From assembly GCA_934177995.1 (NCBI GenBank), contig CAKPPW010000005.1:1-59530 (forward strand): DNA of 59,530 nt. The letters are read 5' to 3'. The notes under the pieces are model-generated. The model was not told the origin of the DNA, did not search any database, and was given only the letters and a program-made list of their open reading frames with translations. The position numbers were made by a program, and so were the translations under genes. Origin of the DNA: an uncultured Bacilli bacterium (GTDB taxonomy: Bacteria > Bacillota_I > Bacilli_A > RF39 > UBA660). Shown piece after piece: positions 79 to 59,530 of this stretch. The stretch's first letter is position 1. Each line of letters begins with the position of its first letter.

Positions 79-2026
79 ATTATTACTTATTATTCTTTTA
101 ATTATTACCCTCATATACACTACCATTTTGAACATGACATCAGTAAGTTATGAGAAAGGAGAAACAACTCTAACAGGAAAAATTATTAAAAAAAGATTTA
201 CTGATGATCATTTAACCTTCACATTAAAAAATAATAAAACTTTACCACTCACATACTATATAAAAAATAAAAAAGAATTAAAAGAATATAAGAAAATAAC
301 CTTAGGTAGTATTATTAGAGTTACTGGTACTTTAAAAAGTGATAATTATTTAATAGTTAAAAATATTAAAATATTAGAAGAAAATAGAAATATTATCTAT
401 TTTATAAAAGATGGTCTATATAATTATTTATCTTCTTTTGATAGTAGAGTATCTCCTTATTTAAAAGCTTTTATTATAGGAAATAAAGATGATTTATCTT
501 ATAAAGTTAAAAAGTCACTCCAAACTATTGGGATATCTCATTTATTTTCCTTATCAGGAAGTCACTTAGCAATTATCTACTACTTTCTCTATTCGCTATT
601 TAAAAAAAGAAAAATTCATCTAATGATATTACCTCTTTTCCTTTACTATTTAATAATTGATTCTAGTGCTTCCATTTTAAGAGCTTTAATTTTTCTATCG
701 ATTTTTAAACCTAATAAAGAATTTCACTTAGGTCTTTCCACTTTCAATATGCTTATTCTAGCACTTATAGTGCTATTAATTATAAATCCAGCAAGTATTA
801 AAGATATTGGTTTTAATTATTCCTTTGTTATATCATCAGGTCTAATTTTATACTATGATAATAAAAAGCAAGATAAGAAATTATTTAGACTAGTAGAAAC
901 ATCTATACTTGCTTTTTTATTCTCTCTACCTATCTCTCTTTATTATTTCTCTAATGTTAATTTACTTAGTATTATCTATAACTTATTTTATGTTCCATTT
1001 GTAAGTTCTATCCTGTTTCCCTTAACTTTTATAGTAGCTATTTGTCCATTCTTAAGTGGTATTTATTTAGTAGTAGTTAATCTATTTGAAAAAAGTATTT
1101 TTTTCTTTGAAGGAATAAGTATTAATCTAACATTTAGAAAGCTAAGTATTATTATTTATATAATTTATCTATTAATAATATTTATAGCTATTTATAAAAG
1201 AAAAGCACTTTATCTTTTACTAATACTTTTAGTACCACACTATTTTTATAACAGTATAGTAGTAGAAGACAAAATGTATATGATTGATGTAGGACAGGGA
1301 GACAGTATCTTGTTTACTTCTAATAATAAATCTATGCTTTTAGATACCGGAGGTAGTATTACTAGTAGTCTTGATAAGTGGTCAGTAGGAGATGATTTAG
1401 TAACATTTATAAGATCAAAGGGAATAAGAAAAATTGATACTATTTTGATTAGCCATGGTGATATGGATCATATTGGTGAATACTTTAAGATAGTTAAATA
1501 TTTTAGAGTAGATAATATTTATTTAAATAGTAATCAGTTAAATAGTATAGAAAAAAGAGTAGTAACTAATTCCGTGAGTAATAATATAAATATTGCTAGA
1601 TTAAAAAGAGGTGATAGTCTTTCTCTTGGTAACTTTAGCTTTTTAGTAATTAATAATAATTTTACTGATGAAAATGATGCTAGTACAGTTTTATTTGGAA
1701 TGATTTATTCTTCTAAATTATTATTAATGGGAGATGCTGGTGTTAGAAGTGAACAAGATATTATAAGTAGTTATAATCTACCTAAAATTGATATTTTAAA
1801 AGTAGGACATCATGGTTCTAATACATCTTCAAGTAAAAAGTTTATAGATGAGATTAATCCTAAATATTCATTAATTAGTGTTGGTGAAAATAATAGATAT
1901 GGTCATCCGAAGAAGTCAGTACTAAATACTTTAAGTAAGAGTAAGATTTACCGAACTGATAAGGATGGAGATATAGAAATAGAGTTTAATAATAAAGGCT
2001 ATAATATTAGAACTTGTAGTACATAG
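32..2026 (+). CDS. comEC: DNA internalization competence protein ComEC/Rec2
   Basis: 664 aa with an N-terminal OB-like region, a polytopic competence domain and a C-terminal metallo-beta-lactamase domain (MIDVGQGDS, SHGDMDHIG, VGHHGS). Start is uncertain: the TTG at 32 overlaps comEA, and in-frame alternatives are TTG 128 and ATG 134. Confidence 0.85.
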   Translation: MEILYLKVLKIILHSRLLLIILLIITLIYTTILNMTSVSYEKGETTLTGKIIKKRFTDDHLTFTLKNNKTLPLTYYIKNKKELKEYKKITLGSIIRVTGTLKSDNYLIVKNIKILEENRNIIYFIKDGLYNYLSSFDSRVSPYLKAFIIGNKDDLSYKVKKSLQTIGISHLFSLSGSHLAIIYYFLYSLFKKRKIHLMILPLFLYYLIIDSSASILRALIFLSIFKPNKEFHLGLSTFNMLILALIVLLIINPASIKDIGFNYSFVISSGLILYYDNKKQDKKLFRLVETSILAFLFSLPISLYYFSNVNLLSIIYNLFYVPFVSSILFPLTFIVAICPFLSGIYLVVVNLFEKSIFFFEGISINLTFRKLSIIIYIIYLLIIFIAIYKRKALYLLLILLVPHYFYNSIVVEDKMYMIDVGQGDSILFTSNNKSMLLDTGGSITSSLDKWSVGDDLVTFIRSKGIRKIDTILISHGDMDHIGEYFKIVKYFRVDNIYLNSNQLNSIEKRVVTNSVSNNINIARLKRGDSLSLGNFSFLVINNNFTDENDASTVLFGMIYSSKLLLMGDAGVRSEQDIISSYNLPKIDILKVGHHGSNTSSSKKFIDEINPKYSLISVGENNRYGHPKKSVLNTLSKSKIYRTDKDGDIEIEFNNKGYNIRTCST

Positions 2027-30324: not shown

Positions 30325-30427
30325 CCTGATAAAAAATTAGTAAAGAGTATATAAATTTCTTATTGAAAATGGCACCCAGTCATGATAAAATTTAAGTATC
30401 AAAGATAAAGAAAGTAGGTGCCTAGCT

Positions 30428-30514
30428 ATGTTGTCAAGTAATATGTTAAGTTTAACATGTGGGCAATTAGACAGTATAACTACTTTCTTTTATCATGGAT
30501 TAATAACAGGATAG
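30428..30514 (+). CDS. candidate leader peptide (28 aa) ending inside the terminator stem
   Basis: Reads MLSSNMLSLTCGQLDSITTFFYHGLITG. An SD-like AGGTG lies 7 nt upstream. The TAG stop at 30512-30514 lies in the 5' arm of the hairpin 30505-30531. Confidence 0.4.
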   Translation: MLSSNMLSLTCGQLDSITTFFYHGLITG

Positions 30515-30537
30515 GATAATCTTACCCTGTTTTTTTA
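30505..30537 (+). terminator. intrinsic terminator within the leader
   Basis: aacaggatagg / cttaccctgtt (11 positions, one mismatch and one G-U) with loop ataat, followed by a T-run, 16 nt before the ATG at 30553. Confidence 0.65.
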
Positions 30538-30552
30538 CTGAAGGAAGAAAAA

Positions 30553-31989
30553 ATGGATAAGAAGAAAGAAAGTATAATTTTATCAGTAATATTACTTTGT
30601 CTAATACTAATAGCAGTAGGTATGAGTTATGCCTTTTTAAAGACTAGTTTCTTTGGAGCCAAAACTAGTGTCTTAAAAGTAGGAAGTTTATCATTAGTAT
30701 TAGATGAAACATCAGGTAATGCTATAACAGTAGAAGATGGAACTCCTATGTATGATAGTGAAGGAGTTAAACAAGATAATTATTTTACCTTTGCTTTAAA
30801 AAATAATGGCGTAATAGATTCAGCCTATACTATCTATTTAGAAGATCAACCATTAGATGATGGTGATATAAGAGTAGGACAAAGTTATGTTCATTATAAT
30901 TTAGAAAAAGATAGTAGTGTTTTACCTGCTAAAGCCTTAGAAGGAGACCAAGCGATAGATAAAGGTATTATCAAAAAGAATCAAACAATCAATTATAAAA
31001 TGAGACTATGGTTTGCAAGTGACATACCACAATCAGAAGAAAATAAAGTATTTAAAGCCAAACTAAATATAGTAGGTAGTCAAAATATGAGGATGATGGC
31101 TAGTAATAACTATAGTGGAGATCTTTGGAACAGGAAACAAGATACAGTAACAAAGATAGTATTTCAAGATTCAATTAACAAAATAGAGGGAGAAAGTGAG
31201 TCATGGGATATATCATCTGCTAAAAATAAAACCGTAATGGCAAGACTAGTACCAAATACTGATAATACAACAACTAATACTTTGTATATACAAGGTAATG
31301 GTGGAGTGATAACTAATTATAATAGCAATTATCTATTTTGTAATTTTTCAAAATTAACCGAGATAGAAAATATAAATTTACTTGATACATCACAAGTAAC
31401 AAATATGAATTATATGTTTTATAGATGTAGTAAATTAACAAGTCTAGATGTAAGTAAGTTTGATATATCACAAGTAACAAATATGAGTTATATGTTTTAT
31501 AGTTGTAGCAGTTTAACAAACCTAGATGTAAATAAGTTTGATACATCAAATGTAACAAGTATGTATTCTATGTTTTCTGTTTGTAGCGGATTAACAAGTC
31601 TAGATGTAAGTAACTTTAATACATCACAAGTAACAAATATGGGGCTTATGTTTTACAATTGTAGTAGTTTAACGAGTTTAGATGTAAGTAAGCTTGATAC
31701 ATCACAAGTAACAAATATGAATAATATGTTTTCGCGATGTTACAGTTTAACAAGCCTGGATGTAAGTAATTTTGATACTTCACAAGTGACAAATATGGGG
31801 TCTATGTTTTATTCATGTAGCAGTTTAACAAGTCTAGACTTTAGAAAAGCCACATTTGATAAAGTAACTGACTATGGCAATATGTTTTATTATACTTCAT
31901 CTACTATAAACATAATAACTAAAGATGCAACTACTAAGAGTTGGTTAGAAGATAAGTTGGATGGTAAGGGAACTGTTACTATTGCTTAG
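30553..31989 (+). CDS. BspA/DUF285-type leucine-rich-repeat surface protein (copy 1)
   Basis: 478 aa with an N-terminal signal anchor and a beta-rich domain, then about seven 26-aa repeats (LTSLDVSxFDTSQVTNMxxMFxxCSS). Confidence 0.8.
   Translation: MDKKKESIILSVILLCLILIAVGMSYAFLKTSFFGAKTSVLKVGSLSLVLDETSGNAITVEDGTPMYDSEGVKQDNYFTFALKNNGVIDSAYTIYLEDQPLDDGDIRVGQSYVHYNLEKDSSVLPAKALEGDQAIDKGIIKKNQTINYKMRLWFASDIPQSEENKVFKAKLNIVGSQNMRMMASNNYSGDLWNRKQDTVTKIVFQDSINKIEGESESWDISSAKNKTVMARLVPNTDNTTTNTLYIQGNGGVITNYNSNYLFCNFSKLTEIENINLLDTSQVTNMNYMFYRCSKLTSLDVSKFDISQVTNMSYMFYSCSSLTNLDVNKFDTSNVTSMYSMFSVCSGLTSLDVSNFNTSQVTNMGLMFYNCSSLTSLDVSKLDTSQVTNMNNMFSRCYSLTSLDVSNFDTSQVTNMGSMFYSCSSLTSLDFRKATFDKVTDYGNMFYYTSSTINIITKDATTKSWLEDKLDGKGTVTIA
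31331..31900 (+). repeat. array of ~78-nt coding repeats (LRR units) inside the BspA-type gene
   Basis: Imperfect tandem units visible in DNA and protein. They lie inside a CDS and are not a CRISPR array. Confidence 0.8.
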
Positions 31990-32612: not shown

Positions 32613-32640
32613 TAAATTTATGATAATATAAACATTAAAT

Positions 32641-32845
32641 CAATGAGAAGGAAGTAGTAAAAGAGTAATAAAAGTAAAAGAGAGATTATGGTTGGTGAGA
32701 ATAATTCTTTTATCCTTTGAATTCGTCCTTTGAGTCTTAAAGCAAAACTTTAGGCGTTACTCGCGTTAAGAGATTAGAGTGTATAGAAAACTATAAAATA
32801 AGGTGGTACCACGGATATGTTTCGTCCTTAGTTTATAGTTTTTCT
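32641..32845 (+). promoter_or_regulatory. T-box riboswitch leader, probable Phe (UUC) specifier
   Basis: Has the stem I GA motif (AATGAGAAGGAAGTAGTA), AGAGAG, and the distal GGTTGGTGAGA. GAATTCG is in the specifier position (TTC at 32722-32724). The T-box sequence is AATAAGGTGGTACCACGG, and the terminal helix aaaactataaa/tttatagtttt is followed by a T-run. The operon contains pheS and pheT. Confidence 0.8.
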
Positions 32846-32861
32846 TTTGTTTAGGGGGATA

Positions 32862-33491
32862 ATGATGAAAAAATTTATTTGGGATTTAGATGGAACACTC
32901 TTAAGTGGTGATTTTTATACACATGAACTTAGTTATTTTGAAGAAAAATTAATAGGTCAAGATATAGAAACTTTTTTAAAGAATAAGTATGGCTATTTGA
33001 TGGAATATGAAAAGAACTTCTTTAAATATGATGTTAAATCATTCAGTGACTTTTTAAGTTTAAGAAGTGGTCTTGTAATTGATGAAACAGTAATTATGGG
33101 GTGGAATGAGCATAGTAAATCTGTTCCCGATACTATTCATACTGGAGCAGAGGAAGTACTTTCTTATTTACAGAGTAAGGGATATGAAAATATTCTTTAT
33201 ACTAATTGGTTTAAAGATGTACAAGAAGCAAGATTAAGAAATGCCAATCTATTAGAATATTTTAGTGAAATCTATGGAGGAGAACTTGCTATTAAGCCTA
33301 ATGCCATTGGCTATAAAAAAATAATTAAAGATGTAAATCCTAATGAAGTAGTAATGATAGGCGATAATATTGTAAATGATGTTTTAGTACCAAGAAGTAT
33401 TGGTATAACTACATATCATTATGATCCATTAGAAAAGAGTAAGGATAAAAATAAAATAAAAACATTAAGAAAGATAAAGGAGATGTATTAA
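32862..33491 (+). CDS. HAD superfamily hydrolase
   Basis: Start moved to ATG 32862 (MMKKFIWDLDGTL). Motif I is DLDGT and motif IV is MIGDNIVNDV. Confidence 0.75.
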   Translation: MMKKFIWDLDGTLLSGDFYTHELSYFEEKLIGQDIETFLKNKYGYLMEYEKNFFKYDVKSFSDFLSLRSGLVIDETVIMGWNEHSKSVPDTIHTGAEEVLSYLQSKGYENILYTNWFKDVQEARLRNANLLEYFSEIYGGELAIKPNAIGYKKIIKDVNPNEVVMIGDNIVNDVLVPRSIGITTYHYDPLEKSKDKNKIKTLRKIKEMY

Positions 33492-33492
33492 A

Positions 33493-34539
33493 GTGAATAT
33501 AGAAGAGATTAAGAAGTCTATAGAAGATGAACTAAATAGTTGTAAAGATACGAAAAGTCTTAATGATTTAAAAGTTAAGTACTTAGGAAAGAAAGGGATT
33601 ATTACAGAACTTAGTAGTAAAATTAAAGAAATACCAAATGAGGAGAAGAAAGAGTTTGGTATGAAGATGAATGAGTTAAAGACTAGTTTTAATTCATTAT
33701 ATGATAGTAAGAAAACTTTATTTGAAGAAGAAGCACTTAATGAAAAGTTAGCTAAAGAAAGCATTGATGTAACACTTCCTGCTACTCATATAGAAATAGG
33801 TAGTCCTAATATCTTAGAGAAACTAGTAGAAGATATGGAAGAGTTATTTATGTCGATGGGGTATGATGTTGTAGATGGACCAGAGATAGAAGAAGATAGA
33901 TATAACTTTGAGCTTTTAAATATTCCAAAAGGTCATCCAGCAAGAGATGCTCAAGATACATTCTATTTAAAAGATAATGAAATCTTACTACGTAGTCAAA
34001 CCTCACCCGTTCAAGTTAGAACTATGTTAGAGTGTAAGGGAGAAAAACCAGTTAGAATGATATGTCCTGGTAAGACTTACCGAAGAGATGATGATGATGC
34101 GACTCACTCTCATCAGTTTATGCAGATAGAAGGATTGCTAGTAGATAAGAATATTCATCTAACAGATTTAAAAGGTACTTTTGAAATAGTTGCTAAAAGA
34201 CTATTTGGAAGTGATACCGAAGTTAGATTAAAACCTAGTTATTATCAGTTTACAGAACCATCAGTAGAGTTAGATATTAGTTGCTTTAATTGTAAAGGAA
34301 AAGGTTGTTCACTATGTAAGAATAGTGGTTATATAACAGTAGCAGGTGCTGGAATGGTTCATCCTAATGTCTTAAGAAATTGTGGTTATGACCCAGCTGT
34401 TTGGAGTGGCTTTGCCTTTGGCTTTGGAGCAGAACGTCTTGCTATGTTGAAGTATGGTATTACGGATATTAGAACTTTTTATATGACTGATTTAAGATGC
34501 AGTAAAACATTTGATAGAAAGGAAGATAATAATGATTAA
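33493..34539 (+). CDS. pheS: phenylalanine-tRNA ligase alpha subunit
   Basis: 348 aa with a GTG start. Motifs HPARDAQDTFY, PGKTYRRD, FHQIEG-like FMQIEG and GFAFGFGAERLAM. Confidence 0.92.
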   Translation: MNIEEIKKSIEDELNSCKDTKSLNDLKVKYLGKKGIITELSSKIKEIPNEEKKEFGMKMNELKTSFNSLYDSKKTLFEEEALNEKLAKESIDVTLPATHIEIGSPNILEKLVEDMEELFMSMGYDVVDGPEIEEDRYNFELLNIPKGHPARDAQDTFYLKDNEILLRSQTSPVQVRTMLECKGEKPVRMICPGKTYRRDDDDATHSHQFMQIEGLLVDKNIHLTDLKGTFEIVAKRLFGSDTEVRLKPSYYQFTEPSVELDISCFNCKGKGCSLCKNSGYITVAGAGMVHPNVLRNCGYDPAVWSGFAFGFGAERLAMLKYGITDIRTFYMTDLRCSKTFDRKEDNND

Positions 34540-36901
34540 TTTAGAGTGGGTAAGTGACTATATTGATATTTCTGATTTAACACCAAAAGAACTAGCTAAA
34601 AGAGTAACAGAAAGTGATATTAATGTCGAAAAAGTAATTACTAATCATATTGATAATTTAGTAATTGGAGAAGTAGTAGAATGTGTTAATCATCCAGATA
34701 GTGACCATTTACATATTTGTAAAGTAGATGTTGGTAGTGAAGTGTTACAAATAGTATGTGGTGCTCCTAATGTTAGAGTCGGTTTAAAAGCAATAGTTGC
34801 TCTTGTAGGAGCTGTTTTACCAGGTGACTTTGTAATTAAAAAAAGTAAGATTAGAGGAGTAGAATCTAATGGAATGCTTTGTGCTTTATATGAGTTAGGA
34901 TTAGAAGAGAAGAATGACGTGACTTATAGTAAAGGTATTTATGAAGGAACTAGTAACTTAAAAGTAGGAGATGATGCCTTAAAAGCCTTAGACTTAGAGT
35001 CAACTGTCTTAGAACTTGATATTCATAAACATCGTAATAATGATTGTTACTCGCATATTGGTTTTGCTTATATCGTAAGTGCTGTTTTAAATAGAAAAGT
35101 AACTCTACCTGATACTAGCTTTACAGAAATAGATGATAGTATAGATAAACATTTTAGCTTAGAAGTAGCAACTAATAAGTGTAGTTATTACCTAGCTAGA
35201 ATGGTTAAAGATGTAAAGATTAAAGAGTCACCAGACTTTATCAAAAAAAGATTAGTAGCAGCTGGTATGCGCCCAATTAACAATGTAGTAGATATTTCTA
35301 ATTATGTAATGTTAGAGTATGGTCAACCCCTTCACTTCTTTGATTATGATAAGTTAGGTTCTAAAGTCTTAGTAAGAGATGCTAAAGAAGAGGAAGAAAT
35401 TACTACTCTTGATAATAAGGAAAGAATTTTAACTAGTAATGATATTGTAATAACTGATACTATAAAACCTGTTTGTATCGCTGGCGTGATGGGTGGAGCT
35501 AATACGGAAGTAGTAGATGACACTAAAACTATTTTAATAGAAAGTGCTATCTTTGACTCTGTTAGTATTAGAAATACAGCAGCTAGATTAAATCTTAGAA
35601 GTGAAGCATCTATTCGTTATGGAAAAGGATTAAACTATGAATATACGGATATGGCTATTAAAAGAGCTTGTCATTTATTAGAAAAGTATGCTGATGCTAA
35701 AATCTTAACAGGTGTTGTTAAATATGATAAAGTTGATAAAACACCAAAAGAAGTAGAGTTTAGAGCAAGTGAAGTTAATAATCTATTAGGGATAGAAATT
35801 AGTGAAGCGGATATGGAAAAAGAAATGGATAGATTAGGCTTTAGTTATACACTAAATAATGGATTATTTAAAGTAGTGATTCCTAATAGAAGACTTGATA
35901 TTGAACCTAATGTAAATGATATAGCAGAAGAGATTGTAAGACTTTATGGTTATCATAATTTAACCTCATCCCTTCCTATTGTATCTATCAAAAAAGGTGA
36001 ATATAAAGGAGATATTAAGTATCGTAAGTTTATCTCTAAAAGACTTAGAATGAAAGGTTTAACTGAGACTAAAACTTATACTTTAACATCACCTAGTATG
36101 GCTTCTATGTTTGATTATGAACATAAAGAAAAATTAGTTCTTCCAAACCCTATGAGTGTTGATAAATCTGTTGTTAGAACTAGTATTATTCCATCTTTAA
36201 TAAATGTTTATAACTATAATAAAGCGAGAAAAGTTGATGATATCTTCTTATATGAGATAAGTAAAACATATGATAAAGATTATAAGGAAGAGTCTAAAAT
36301 AGCTGGTCTATTAAAAGGAAATATTGTTAAATCAGCTTGGAATGGTAATACTAAGTGTGACTTCTATGTCGTTAAAGGAATAGTAGAAGATATTCTTAAT
36401 TCACTAGGATTTAATAATCGTTATACTTTTGTTCCTAAGGAGTTACCTAATATTCATAAAGGAATATCTGCTAGTATTTTATTAGATGGAGAAATGTTAG
36501 GTATCATTGGAAGAGTTCATCCTAATACTTTAAAAGATGAAGTGTATGTCTTTGAATTATCTTTAAATAAACTAATGAGAGATGTTAAACCTATTAAGTT
36601 TAAGGAACCATCTAAGTATCCTAGTATAGAAAAAGATGTTGCTTTCTTAATAAATAAAGAGATAACTGCTAGTGATATTTCTAAAGTAATCAAAAAATCA
36701 TCTTCTAGATTACTAAAGAGTATAGATGTATTTGATGTTTATAGTGGGGATAATATAGATAAGGATAAAAAGTCTATTGCCTTTAAGCTTATTTATCAAG
36801 ATGAGGCTAAGACTTTAACTGATGATGAAGTTATGGCTGATTTTCATAAGATGATAGAGAAAGTTACTAAGGAATTTAATTGTGAGATTAGAGATAATTA
36901 G
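34532..36901 (+). CDS. pheT: phenylalanine-tRNA ligase beta subunit
   Basis: Start at ATG 34532 overlaps the pheS stop. Has MINLEWVSDYIDI, a tRNA-binding domain (VVECVNHPDSDHLHICKVDVG), and B3/4, B5 and FDX-ACB regions. Confidence 0.92.
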   Translation: MINLEWVSDYIDISDLTPKELAKRVTESDINVEKVITNHIDNLVIGEVVECVNHPDSDHLHICKVDVGSEVLQIVCGAPNVRVGLKAIVALVGAVLPGDFVIKKSKIRGVESNGMLCALYELGLEEKNDVTYSKGIYEGTSNLKVGDDALKALDLESTVLELDIHKHRNNDCYSHIGFAYIVSAVLNRKVTLPDTSFTEIDDSIDKHFSLEVATNKCSYYLARMVKDVKIKESPDFIKKRLVAAGMRPINNVVDISNYVMLEYGQPLHFFDYDKLGSKVLVRDAKEEEEITTLDNKERILTSNDIVITDTIKPVCIAGVMGGANTEVVDDTKTILIESAIFDSVSIRNTAARLNLRSEASIRYGKGLNYEYTDMAIKRACHLLEKYADAKILTGVVKYDKVDKTPKEVEFRASEVNNLLGIEISEADMEKEMDRLGFSYTLNNGLFKVVIPNRRLDIEPNVNDIAEEIVRLYGYHNLTSSLPIVSIKKGEYKGDIKYRKFISKRLRMKGLTETKTYTLTSPSMASMFDYEHKEKLVLPNPMSVDKSVVRTSIIPSLINVYNYNKARKVDDIFLYEISKTYDKDYKEESKIAGLLKGNIVKSAWNGNTKCDFYVVKGIVEDILNSLGFNNRYTFVPKELPNIHKGISASILLDGEMLGIIGRVHPNTLKDEVYVFELSLNKLMRDVKPIKFKEPSKYPSIEKDVAFLINKEITASDISKVIKKSSSRLLKSIDVFDVYSGDNIDKDKKSIAFKLIYQDEAKTLTDDEVMADFHKMIEKVTKEFNCEIRDN

Positions 36902-56931: not shown

Positions 56932-58076
56932 TCTTTTTTAGTACGGGAAAAGTTAAAATATTAAGAAATTATTCTATAGTTATAGTAATAAGTAAGTATC
57001 TATGATATAAAATAATTAAAAATTTTTTTGTCATATGCTAATTTAGTAAATCTCGGTAAAAATATACCCTCAATTTACTAAATTGAAGGGTTGAATTTAA
57101 TAAAACCCCTAATTTGGAAGAGTGAATTTTGAAAATTGGCTATTTGCAAAGTGATATTCATATCTGTTATCCTTTAACTACTTGTCCAAAGAAGGGAGGA
57201 ATATGACAAAGAAATTTATAAAACCATTATATGATACTACTATAAAGTATTTAGTAAAAAGTACTGATACAAGGTATATCATCTATAAGTTTATTTATTT
57301 GGCAACTGGTATAGATCTTAGTGATTATACGTTAATAGATCAAGAGTTAAATACTGGTAATCATATAAAAGATTATCGTCTTGATTTATTATTTAAGAAA
57401 GATTCTACCATTGTTAATCTAGAAGTTAATTATGAAATGACATGCTGGACAAGAAGAAAACAATATAATTATCTATTTAGATTAGCCTAAAATGTCGGTG
57501 ATAGTTACAAGGCTAGAAAAGTTGTACAAATAAGTCTAAACAATTCTTACTTTGAAAAGAAAGATGCTAAGTTAGTCACTTACAGTTTTAGAGATAATGT
57601 TTATCATACTAAAATAGATGGTATTGAAAGTTATGAGGTATATCTAAGTAATTTTAAAGGCATTAAGTATAATGGTAAGAATGAGCTTGCTACACTGTGT
57701 TCTATTTTAACCAGTGAGAGCATGGAAGAATTAAAAGAAATAGTAGGAAACTATAAGGAGGGATTAATAATAATGAGCGAACTTGAAAAACTAAAACTAA
57801 ACGATGAATTTAATGCTTACTATGACTATGAAGCAGTTATTAGAAAAGAGAAAAACTCTGAATATGCTAGTGGCAGAGATGATGGACTAGCTGAGGGGTT
57901 GACCAAAGGAAAAAGTTTGGGACTGGCTGAAGGAAAAAGCTTAGGCTTATCTGAAGGAGCTAATAAAGAAAAATTAGCTATAGCAAAAATAATGCTTCAA
58001 GGAAAAGAATCCTTAGACAAGATAATGAAATATACTGGTTTAAGTAAAAAAGAACTTACTATGCTACTATAATTAT
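56932..58076 (+). mobile_element. Rpn / PD-(D/E)XK_2 'putative transposase' element, copy C
   Basis: Direct repeat of 23132-24255, including the upstream non-coding module. Lies immediately upstream of the second BspA-type leader. Confidence 0.7.
57203..58072 (+). pseudogene. Rpn-family / PDDEXK_2 protein with the same single in-frame TAA (57488-57490)
   Basis: 57203-57490 and 57491-58072 are in one frame. The stop is at the same codon (FRLA*NVGDSY) as in copy B. The C-terminal LGLAEG-type repeat number differs from copy B. Confidence 0.7.
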
Positions 58077-58188
58077 TGCTAGACAATAATTAACATAATT
58101 TTTACTTTAAAGTTAAAAAGTAGTTGAATAACCACTTCACTCCATGATAAACTTTAGATATAAGATAAAAGGAAGGAGCTAGATATAT

Positions 58189-58257
58189 ATGACAGTGTCA
58201 ACCAATATGTCAAGTTTACAATCAGTTAACATGGGGGGGGCATTTTATATAGTTTAA
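58189..58257 (+). CDS. candidate leader peptide, truncated form (22 aa) in the sequenced G8 state
   Basis: Reads MTVSTNMSSLQSVNMGGAFYIV. SD GGAAGGAG lies 10 nt upstream. The frame after the G-run differs from the one that matches copy 1. Confidence 0.35.
   Translation: MTVSTNMSSLQSVNMGGAFYIV
58233..58240 (+). repeat. G8 homopolymeric tract inside the leader uORF
   Basis: Eight consecutive G in a ~28-30% GC window. The equivalent position in copy 1 reads GTGGG. Confidence 0.95.
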
Positions 58258-58282
58258 TTACTTCTTTTTATCGTGCACTAAT

Positions 58283-58313
58283 AACAGGATAAGCTAGTCT
58301 TATCTTGTTTTTT
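58283..58313 (+). terminator. intrinsic terminator within leader copy 2
   Basis: aacaggataag / cttatcttgtt (11 bp, one G-U) with loop ctagt, followed by a T-run. Confidence 0.65.
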
Positions 58314-58344: not shown

Positions 58345-59530
58345 ATGAATAACAAAAAACAATTATTACTATCAATCGGACTCGTTTTAATACTAGTTCT
58401 AATGATAGTAGGTATTAGTTATGCCGCCTTTCAGTTTACTGGTACTGGCCAAAAAACTAATACTATAACAACAGGTGTCTTGTCAATGAGCTATGATGAG
58501 TCAAGTAATACTATTAGTATGACAGGAGCCTTACCAACAACAGATGCCACAGGAAAAGTAAGATTAACCGAAGGAGAATACTTTGATTTTACAGTTAAAA
58601 GTACTATTCAAGGAGATGCTAATATTAACTGGGAGATAGCAGCAGAAGATATAACATCATCATCAGCTAAAAAGATAGATGGTAAAAACATAAAACTCTA
58701 TTTAACAAAACTAGATAGTACTGGAACAGAAACACAAGTAATGTCTCCTAAAGTGTTTACTACAAAGACAAGTGAAAACACAAAGACAGGAAGACCAGCT
58801 GGAATGATGAGTCTTGCAACAGGAACAATGAGTGCAAGTGAAACAACTAAATATCGTCTTAGAATGTATGTAGATGAAAGCTATAATCCACAAGGATATG
58901 GAGGAGGCCTATCATTTAGTGTTAAGATAAATGCTTATGGAAAAGTAAAAGAAGCACCAACAGGTAGTAAGTTGAAAGCATATACTATGGATGTTGATAG
59001 CAGACCATCAACAGATTTTCATACTAGTGATTACAAATCAAAAATAACAAGTATTACTACAAAAAAAGATAATATAGTACCAGAGACCGCAACGGAAAGT
59101 TGGGATATGTCAGAAGCAGGTGATGGTTCAGTAATGGCATATGTAGAAGATGATGAAAGTGGTAATAGTACCTATAAACTAACAATTGGTGGAAAAGATG
59201 GGATTATTGCTAATGAAAGTATGATAGATTATTTTTATGGGTTTAAAAATGTAACATCAATGGATTTATCAGCTCTTGATACAGCAAAAACTACAAGAAT
59301 GTATGGTATGTTTCAATATTGTAGCAGTTTAACAAATCTAGATTTAAGTACTTTTGATACATCACAGGTAACAGATATGATATATATGTTTTCTAATTGT
59401 AGCAGATTAACAAGTCTAGATGTAAGTAATTTTGATACCTCAAAAGTAACAAGTATGATATATATGTTTTCTAATTGTAGCAGATTAACAAGTCTAGATG
59501 TAAGTAATTTTGATACCTCAAAAGTAACAA
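58345..59530 (+). CDS. BspA/DUF285-type leucine-rich-repeat surface protein (copy 2), 3' end outside the window
   Basis: Not in the supplied track because there is no stop in the window. Starts MNNKKQLLLSIGLVLILVLMIVGISYAAFQFTGTGQ... and then has LRR units (LTSLDVSNFDTSKVTSMIYMFSNCSR). Confidence 0.8.
   Translation, partial: MNNKKQLLLSIGLVLILVLMIVGISYAAFQFTGTGQKTNTITTGVLSMSYDESSNTISMTGALPTTDATGKVRLTEGEYFDFTVKSTIQGDANINWEIAAEDITSSSAKKIDGKNIKLYLTKLDSTGTETQVMSPKVFTTKTSENTKTGRPAGMMSLATGTMSASETTKYRLRMYVDESYNPQGYGGGLSFSVKINAYGKVKEAPTGSKLKAYTMDVDSRPSTDFHTSDYKSKITSITTKKDNIVPETATESWDMSEAGDGSVMAYVEDDESGNSTYKLTIGGKDGIIANESMIDYFYGFKNVTSMDLSALDTAKTTRMYGMFQYCSSLTNLDLSTFDTSQVTDMIYMFSNCSRLTSLDVSNFDTSKVTSMIYMFSNCSRLTSLDVSNFDTSKVT
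59377..59530 (+). repeat. perfect tandem duplication of a 78-nt LRR-coding unit
   Basis: 59377-59454 is repeated exactly from 59455 to the window end (atgatatatatgttttctaattgtagcagattaacaagtctagatgtaagtaattttgatacctcaaaagtaacaagt). Confidence 0.9.

Follow-up and report, generated by a model that had tools for sequence, protein, structure and literature searches.

The 59,530-nt stretch of contig CAKPPW010000005.1 analysed here (GenBank assembly GCA_934177995.1; hereafter the window) comes from an uncultured Bacilli bacterium (RF39; UBA660) and contains two genes for surface proteins of the DUF285/leucine-rich-repeat (LRR) type, starting at 30553 and 58345. Each gene is preceded by a leader in which the same blocks occur in the same order—an extended -10 promoter, a Shine-Dalgarno (SD) sequence with a short upstream open reading frame (uORF), and an 11-bp hairpin followed by a T-run—while the DNA 5' of the two promoters is unrelated, and rereading of both regions agrees with a preliminary description that had reported this arrangement. 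Both cargo genes show PF03382 (DUF285) and LRR signals, and the leader is better conserved than the cargo, since the two leaders are ~76% identical in DNA and the downstream proteins merely 32% identical.

Anatomy of the two leaders

Both leaders lie on the forward strand. In copy 1, the promoter (30363-30391) consists of a -35 box TTGAAA, a 17-nt spacer and the extended -10 box TG-a-TAAAAT (10 of 12 matches, TG present), with a predicted transcription start at ~30398 and a predicted helix, P1, beginning 4 nt further on. The 5' strand of P1 in the predicted folds (AAGATAAAGAAAGTAGGTG, 30402-30420) is a purine tract that holds the SD of the uORF (AGGTG, 30416-30420). The uORF itself (MLSSNMLSLTCGQLDSITTFFYHGLITG, 30428-30514) runs from an ATG at 30428 over 28 codons to a TAG at 30512-30514, and this placement of the stop codon within the 5' arm of the hairpin, as earlier described, was confirmed to the base. 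Its frame corresponds to the long conserved frame of the homologues ('frame A'). Alignment with these homologues identifies a remnant of a poly-G site (AACATGTGGG, 30454-30463) at which ~14 nt, the G-run included, have been deleted, and with the G-tract gone the frame is fixed. The 3' strand of P1 (30464-30494, with the core AGTATAACTACTTTCTTTTATC at 30474-30494; duplex -18.5 kcal/mol) also lies inside the uORF. The predicted intrinsic terminator (30505-30536) comprises the 5' arm AACAGGATAGG (30505-30515), a loop (30516-30520), the 3' arm (30521-30531) and seven Ts (30530-30536), i.e., a hairpin of 11 bp with a dG of -9.9, and its T-run is separated by 16 nt from the ATG of the gene. A ribosome-binding site (GAAGGAAG, 30541-30548) precedes the surface-protein gene (30553-31989), whose product of 478 amino acids (aa) carries an N-terminal signal or anchor and matches PF03382 with E = 1.8e-41. 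An identical allele of this leader is present in a second sample (L132).

In copy 2, the promoter (58124-58153) combines TTGAAT, an 18-nt spacer and TG-a-TAAACT, and is followed by the 5' strand of P1 (AAGATAAAAGGAAGGAG, 58162-58178; duplex -19.6 kcal/mol) with the SD GGAG at 58175-58178. The uORF as sequenced (MTVSTNMSSLQSVNMGGAFYIV, 58189-58257) begins with an ATG at 58189 and ends after 22 codons at an early TAA (58255-58257), 28 nt upstream of the hairpin, because a run of eight guanines (G8, 58233-58240) shifts it one base off the conserved frame. With G9 the same leader would encode MTVSTNMSSLQSVNMGGGILYSLITSFYRALITG and stop at the TAA at 58290-58292, in the 5' arm of the hairpin. The earlier claim that the uORF stops inside the terminator thus applies to copy 1 and not to copy 2 as sequenced. 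This G8 tract, which we propose to be a slipped-strand switch and which corresponds to G6-G11 in homologues, is the sole G or C run of at least 7 in the window (27.9% GC). The 3' strand of P1 in the predicted fold (…TATATAGTTTAATTACTTCTTTTTATC, 58242-58272) holds the out-of-frame stop codons, and the predicted intrinsic terminator (58283-58313) has arms at 58283-58293 and 58299-58309 followed by six Ts, with a dG of -10.5. The second DUF285/LRR gene (58345-59530; PF03382, E = 1.8e-20) extends past the end of the window.

Homologous leaders precede one family of surface-protein genes

The poly-G tract was found by aligning both leaders with the upstream regions of orthologous genes from metagenome-assembled genomes (MAGs). 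For a wider survey, one exact-pattern scan each of a genome and a metagenome collection was made with a 25-nt block spanning the uORF end, yielding 15 and 112 loci, respectively; its reach is that of leaders close to this search pattern, and all copies come from one narrow lineage. The scans of public genomes and metagenomes gave 133 leader instances in total (97 unique), far beyond chance, to which nhmmer over the collected loci added two further copies only. Their sources are Clostridium sp. CAG:451, 'uncultured Bacilli' MAGs and human-gut assemblies, mostly SPAdes/Illumina contigs, some of them at 2-5x coverage, with a few long-read assemblies. A paralogue of the window surface-protein genes follows in 94 of the 99 copies with enough downstream DNA; these paralogues start with MDKKK… or MNNKK….

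The blocks seen in the window recur throughout this set. The extended -10 box is present in 114/117 homologous leaders, with a promoter spacer of 17 nt in 65 and 18 nt in 42, and in 85 leaders it ends 7 nt 5' of an AAGATAA motif, which places the predicted transcript start at the foot of helix P1. An AGGTG-like SD lies 6-8 nt 5' of an ATG or GTG in nearly all leaders, and the leader ORFs range from 28 to 49 codons. Each of the 133 leaders has a TAG or TAA stop codon at one and the same position of the hairpin arm, the hairpins have a mean dG of -10.1, and the T-run comprises 6-7 Ts in 110/117. A simple terminator scan missed both hairpins of the window, whose stems carry a mismatch or a G·U pair. 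The distance from the terminator to the gene start is 16-45 nt, too short for a promoter of its own, so that the cargo gene would depend on read-through of the hairpin.

Several variants were noticed in this collection. In four leaders (L009, L013, L029 and L104), the spacer separating the -35 and -10 boxes contains a C5-C6 run (e.g., TTGAATAAACACCCCCCTACATGATAGAAT), which may be a second slippage tract altering the spacer length. Degenerate or rearranged leaders were seen at L074 7490-7628 (reverse strand), L006 4780-4900 and L016/L082: among them, one without a G-run has its T-run deleted and possibly shows constitutive read-through, one is broken within the hairpin, and two have unrelated DNA 3' of the terminator.

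In locus L038, a group II intron (220-506, reverse strand; RF02001, 127.6 bits; RF01998) lies right after the leader hairpin and T-run (~560-640) and takes the place of the start of the surface-protein gene. Group II introns of bacterial class C are directed to sites immediately 3' of intrinsic terminators; if such targeting applies here, the position of this intron would offer independent support for the hairpin being a terminator motif.

A poly-G tract of variable length lies within the uORF

A G6-G11 run is found inside the uORF in 78 of the 126 leaders having at least 100 nt of upstream sequence, with lengths such as G7 in L001, G8 in L004, G9 in L003 and G10 in L002. To follow the frames, uORFs were located by their SD and start codon and traced to the stop. 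When the G-run is absent or interrupted (five Gs or fewer), the uORF ends at the TAG or TAA of the hairpin 5' arm in 39 of 41 leaders, all four copies of Clostridium sp. CAG:451 being of this type, and the long-frame peptide ends with …FYH[AG]LITG. Leaders with six or more Gs behave differently: out of 73 evaluated, 14 have the in-arm stop, 4 stop 5 nt later in the loop and 1 reads through, and the remaining 54 stop early, 28-40 nt short of where the stem begins.

All 73 poly-G leaders are nevertheless within one G of an intact long frame: 14 are in it, 32 need +1 and 27 need -1, and no decayed long frame occurs among them. Both alternative frames stop early in 56 of these leaders (at -23 to -11 relative to the start of the search pattern, i.e., 28-40 nt before the stem), and in 16 one of the two ends within the loop of the hairpin. 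Five groups of leaders share 45 nt upstream and ~100 nt downstream of the tract without a mismatch and differ solely in the number of Gs: L001 (G7) and L042 (G9); L002 (G10) and L003 (G9); L086 (G8), L091 (G9) and L089 (G10); L036 (G8) with L077 and L100 (both G9); and L058 (G7) and L070 (G9). Within assemblies, the four G8 copies of ERZ825670 are all out of frame and a fifth copy has neither G-run nor T-run, while one of six copies is in frame in 'bacterium G02639'. Taken together, these comparisons show a uORF that is selected to stay open into the hairpin, with a G-run that is hypervariable and a frame that is not kept constant in the copies carrying it.

The long-frame peptide is also represented in a protein database, by 204 unannotated clusters that include in-frame MGG, MGGG and MGGGG variants. 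The FYH[AG]LITG C-terminus is nearly invariant in 120 called peptides, and the N-terminal halves differ among leader classes. A conserved block, GTTAACATG(G)n, is read in different frames in classes I/II and in class III. In class III (e.g., L008, L033, L094 and L036), the uORF encodes 46-49 aa (MMYILICKSTT…) and the long frame needs a G number of 1 mod 3, as against 0 mod 3 in classes I/II, with the same downstream sequence; some class III leaders also have an internal duplication of ~21 nt (TACATTTTAATTCGCAA…). The only repeated residue in the leader peptides is Gly, from the G-run.

One out-of-frame G11 leader (L008, ~1215, reverse strand) is followed by a surface-protein ORF that stops after six codons (ATGAATAACAAAAAACAATGA) beside an A6 run; this early stop may reflect decay or a second frameshift-prone site.

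The leader RNA forms a covarying helix

Both leaders of the window fold better than shuffled controls (z = -3.5 for copy 1 and -5.4 for copy 2). The dominant helix, P1, is 18-28 bp long. One of its strands is the 5' purine tract, in which lie the SD and frequently the start codon, and the other is the distal, pyrimidine-rich portion of the uORF (…ACTTCTTTTTATC). The preliminary description had noted an SD-like purine tract; an SD is indeed present, but it had been overlooked that the same tract also pairs with the distal uORF, as the 5' strand of a long helix that covaries. Column-wise covariation analysis (MAFFT and RNAalifold) did not capture P1, its output being limited to the invariant helix base or a weak 2:3 hairpin; it is uninformative here because bulges and register vary among leader classes. 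P1 was tested instead by permuting cognate and non-cognate duplexes: cognate strands pair with a mean of -21.9 kcal/mol across the leader set, compared to -17.6 kcal/mol for random non-cognate pairings, and for the variable upper part of P1, 0 of 1000 permutations reached the observed mean.

The pairing of the translation start follows the same pattern. On average 81% of the SD bases are paired in P1 (78 unique leaders), and covariation extends to the first base of the start codon, which pairs as A-U in 23 leaders, G-C in 10 and G-U in 7, with no C partner opposite an A start among the leaders compared. G·U pairs make up 15% of P1, and the duplex on the complementary strand is 7 kcal/mol weaker, which means that selection acts on the plus-strand RNA. 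On this evidence P1 is a feature of the RNA and not a recombinase site. The out-of-frame stop codons fall within its 3' strand. The only candidate for an alternative, antiterminator-like (2:3) pairing is a weak one of 8 bp between UUUAUCAUG and CAGGAUAGG, located in invariant sequence that is fixed by the search pattern.

Three leaders (L053, L066 and L115) seem to be recombinant, joining the 5' half of class II to the 3' half and terminator of class I, with less stable P1 helices (-12.8 to -16 kcal/mol). They suggest that leaders and gene heads are shuffled among paralogues.

A proposed phase-variable attenuator and its alternatives

The comparative evidence indicates that the leader is a real and functionally constrained feature. 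The direct observations—its anatomy, the conservation of the frame, the polymorphism in G length, the covariation of the helix and the link to one gene family—would be best accounted for if it were a phase-variable leader-peptide transcription attenuator, a reading to which we give a probability of roughly 0.7. A sigma-70-type promoter would fire and the first ~20 nt of the transcript would bear the SD of the 28-49-codon leader ORF, whose frame would be set by slipped-strand mispairing altering the length of the G6-G11 run. In the long frame, the ribosome would traverse the distal leader and stop at the UAG or UAA within the terminator 5' arm, its footprint extending from that arm across the loop into the beginning of the 3' arm at the time when the polymerase is on the U-tract, so that the hairpin would be blocked and transcription would enter the DUF285/LRR gene (ON). 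In the other frames, the ribosome would be released 28-40 nt before the hairpin, the terminator would form and the gene would be silent (OFF).

Translation of the uORF, termination at the hairpin and the identity of the ON frame are the parts that we infer from these comparisons. The long frame is probably the ON state because nearly all copies now lacking the G-run are locked in it, their genes being intact, and because of the precedent of Streptococcus gallolyticus discussed below. Copy 1, G-run-free and locked in the long frame, is accordingly predicted to be constitutively ON, copy 2 (G8), lacking one G, is predicted to be OFF, and OFF is also the state predicted for most copies within an assembly. 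The preliminary description had proposed that translation of the uORF suppresses termination. That idea gains comparative support from the kept frame (39/41), from the long frame lying within one base in 73/73 and from the S. gallolyticus analogue; the poly-G tract, which is the decisive part, had escaped it, and this tract would probably make the leader a stochastic phase-variation switch and not a signal-sensing attenuator. As to P1, we conjecture that it may limit leader translation to ribosomes loaded co-transcriptionally, that it may act as a pause hairpin synchronising ribosome and polymerase, and that it may keep terminated or untranslated RNA in a closed, terminating form.

A number of points weigh against this reading. 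Everything beyond the anatomy is drawn from comparison of sequences. The final eight uORF codons (FYHxLITG) are imposed by the DNA search pattern, so that their conservation within the DNA set is circular, although a profile-based protein search backs the conservation of the peptide C-terminus semi-independently; moreover, much of that conservation could stem from constraints that P1 and the terminator place on the nucleotide sequence. The G lengths were read from consensus contigs, i.e., they represent differences between assemblies, and some may be errors. The in-frame share of the poly-G leaders, only 14 of 73 (19%), is below one third. P1 hides the SD and the start codon, which could mean that the uORF is poorly translated. 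Finally, in some Firmicutes, such as Bacillus subtilis, RNA polymerase outruns the ribosomes, which would make occlusion of the hairpin by a ribosome weaker.

As a first alternative, the G-run may phase-vary the ORF with an output that is post-transcriptional, opening of P1 affecting mRNA stability or processing, or the 28-49-aa peptide may itself be functional, the hairpin then being a weak terminator or a stabiliser. Such a scheme is improbable in our view. In its favour, P1 is long, strong and covarying and resembles an RNase III substrate, a long-frame ribosome must melt its 3' strand, where the out-of-frame stops lie, and the C-terminus of the called peptides is nearly invariant. The invariable stop codon in the hairpin arm followed by T6-7 argues for the phase-variable attenuator instead, being the geometry that acts through termination in S. 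gallolyticus, and the class-specific N-terminal halves, together with the reading of the GTTAACATG(G)n block in two frames, speak against a sequence-specific function of the peptide.

A leader acting as a structured RNA independently of translation—a riboswitch or protein-binding attenuator with P1 as the sensor, an incidental ORF and G differences due to assembly noise—is quite unlikely. The significant folds and the covariation of P1 speak for it, as does the layout of a helix followed by a terminator, which is typical of riboswitches, but such a reading does not account for the spacing of 6-8 nt between SD and start codon found in almost all leaders, for a frame kept in 39/41 and restorable in 73/73 leaders despite the frequent stops of a 28%-GC genome, or for the G6-G11 spread across Illumina assemblies. 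The leaders also have no strong alternative antiterminator pairing and no Rfam family match, a permissive Rfam search of the leader returning noise only (E of at least 0.1). The riboswitch reading was rejected on these grounds. Nor do the leaders resemble an amino-acid-sensing attenuator of the trp/his/pheA type in their codons or cargo, as there is no regulatory codon run and the cargo is a surface protein and not a biosynthetic one.

The polarity could also be reversed, with the long frame OFF (e.g., a ribosome stalled in the arm blocking something) and the short frames ON, which would suit the predominance of short frames among poly-G copies (54/73). We regard this as very unlikely, given that copies losing the G-run are long-frame in 39/41 cases with intact genes, where permanently silent genes would be lost, and that experiments in S. 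gallolyticus found the long frame to be ON (PMC3894217).

An invertible DNA element comparable to that of Clostridioides difficile cwpV, with recombinase sites flanking the G-run segment, has in its favour the 18-28-bp inverted repeats around a 50-110-bp segment, but this reading was rejected and can practically be discarded, as 0 of 133 copies are inverted, the three C-runs found all lie in promoter spacers, and the helix is rich in G·U pairs (15%) and strand-specific, 7 kcal/mol weaker on the complementary strand.

Relation to known systems

The closest counterpart of the proposed attenuator is found at the pil1 locus (and pil3) of Streptococcus gallolyticus, where a leader-peptide gene contains GCAGA repeats whose number sets the peptide length (Danne et al. 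2014, PMC3894217). A leader stop 28-39 nt before the premature terminator gives low pilus expression there, and a stop within or beyond the hairpin gives high expression, as demonstrated with terminator-deletion, start-codon and triple-stop mutants (PMC3894217). Both designs consist of a promoter, a leader ORF with a hypermutable repeat, an intrinsic terminator and a gene for a surface structure, and in both the repeat number decides between a stop ~28-39 nt upstream of the hairpin (28-40 nt here) and one within or after it, so that the distances agree closely. Stochastic ON/OFF control of an immunogenic surface structure in a gut-associated Firmicute is likewise a common trait, although switching in our case is predicted from sequence.

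The differences are equally clear. The repeat is a G homopolymer (G6-G11) in the present leaders and GCAGA x13-23 in pil1, and there is no sequence similarity to the pil1/pil3 leader, which makes the two mechanistic analogues of independent origin rather than homologues. Usually one of three frames reaches the hairpin here, whereas both out-of-frame states do so in pil1; the 5' arm itself contains the long-frame stop, and there is the additional covarying helix P1. The cargo consists of many dispersed single DUF285/LRR genes instead of sortase-pilus operons, and G-run-free variants are common.

Non-switching relatives of this logic are the Escherichia coli pyrBI and pyrE attenuators, in which a ribosome translating to or into the hairpin prevents termination and UTP-dependent pausing of RNA polymerase is sensed; in E. 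coli K-12, the rph-1 frameshift causes an early translation stop that raises termination before pyrE. Unlike the present leaders, these attenuators are not hypermutable, have no repeat tract and serve biosynthetic genes. In C. difficile cwpV, phase variation of a surface protein occurs by site-specific DNA inversion, which controls an intrinsic terminator located in the leader between promoter and gene; in contrast with the present system, it involves inversion, of which our 133 copies show no case, and no translation of a leader peptide.

The classical contingency loci of Neisseria, Campylobacter, Haemophilus and Mycoplasma, which vary by homopolymer slippage, share with our leaders a G-run of at least 7 in an AT-rich genome, strain polymorphism and a connection with surface proteins, but their tract lies in the structural gene or the promoter spacer and not, as here, in a separate leader ORF proposed to act via transcription termination. 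In Mollicutes, DUF285 proteins form a surface family that varies, and the 'drp' genes of Mycoplasma agalactiae undergo poly-A frameshifts inside the genes, with no leader device (PMC2824730).

Our literature searches found no homopolymer leader-peptide attenuator and no such device for DUF285 genes or for this lineage. The statement of the preliminary description that no leader-peptide class had been described therefore holds for the gene family and lineage but not for the mechanism, which was described in 2014 (PMC3894217). The principle itself was already known from one streptococcal system; the homopolymer version and the DUF285 cargo would, as far as these searches go, be new.

If the proposed attenuator is real, this would be only the second lineage, as far as we know, to switch a gene via transcription attenuation by means of a hypermutable leader-peptide repeat, which would suggest that evolution has arrived at this design more than once and that it is no peculiarity of streptococci. 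It would give uncultured, small-genome Bacilli of the human gut a route to vary adhesin-like surface proteins. Metagenomic or metatranscriptomic reads could reveal the ON/OFF state directly, with only ~60 nt from G-run to terminator on the same RNA and ~100 nt end to end, in leaders that gene callers overlook or call as anonymous 30-aa proteins. The unit is compact (~190 bp) and could possibly serve as a stochastic switch in synthetic biology.

A more far-reaching version can be offered only tentatively. An independently evolved homopolymer attenuation switch might sit on every member of a dispersed LRR family and thereby generate combinatorial surface variation, P1 might close the SD and start codon such that only the pioneer ribosome, coupled to RNA polymerase, reads the frame while other RNA is locked shut, and species losing the G-run, such as Clostridium sp. 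CAG:451, might use the device as a constitutive or translation-sensing attenuator. We hold this combination to be less probable than its negation.

Other features of the window

The neighbouring genes are ordinary chromosomal ones (murB, ftsQ/divIB, frr and recD2). An Rfam search of the window at gathering scores gave no match on the leaders and only an unrelated, full-length T-box leader (RF00230, 112 bits) at 32634-32832 on the forward strand, 5' of a HAD-hydrolase ORF (32847-33491). The ORFs that follow (33493-36901) are pheS- and pheT-like, as judged by synteny with loci L001-L004. Upstream of copy 2 and adjoining it is an ORF of 116 aa (57722-58072, forward strand) with repeated GLAEGKSLGLSEG-like motifs and a weak match to Yae1_N.

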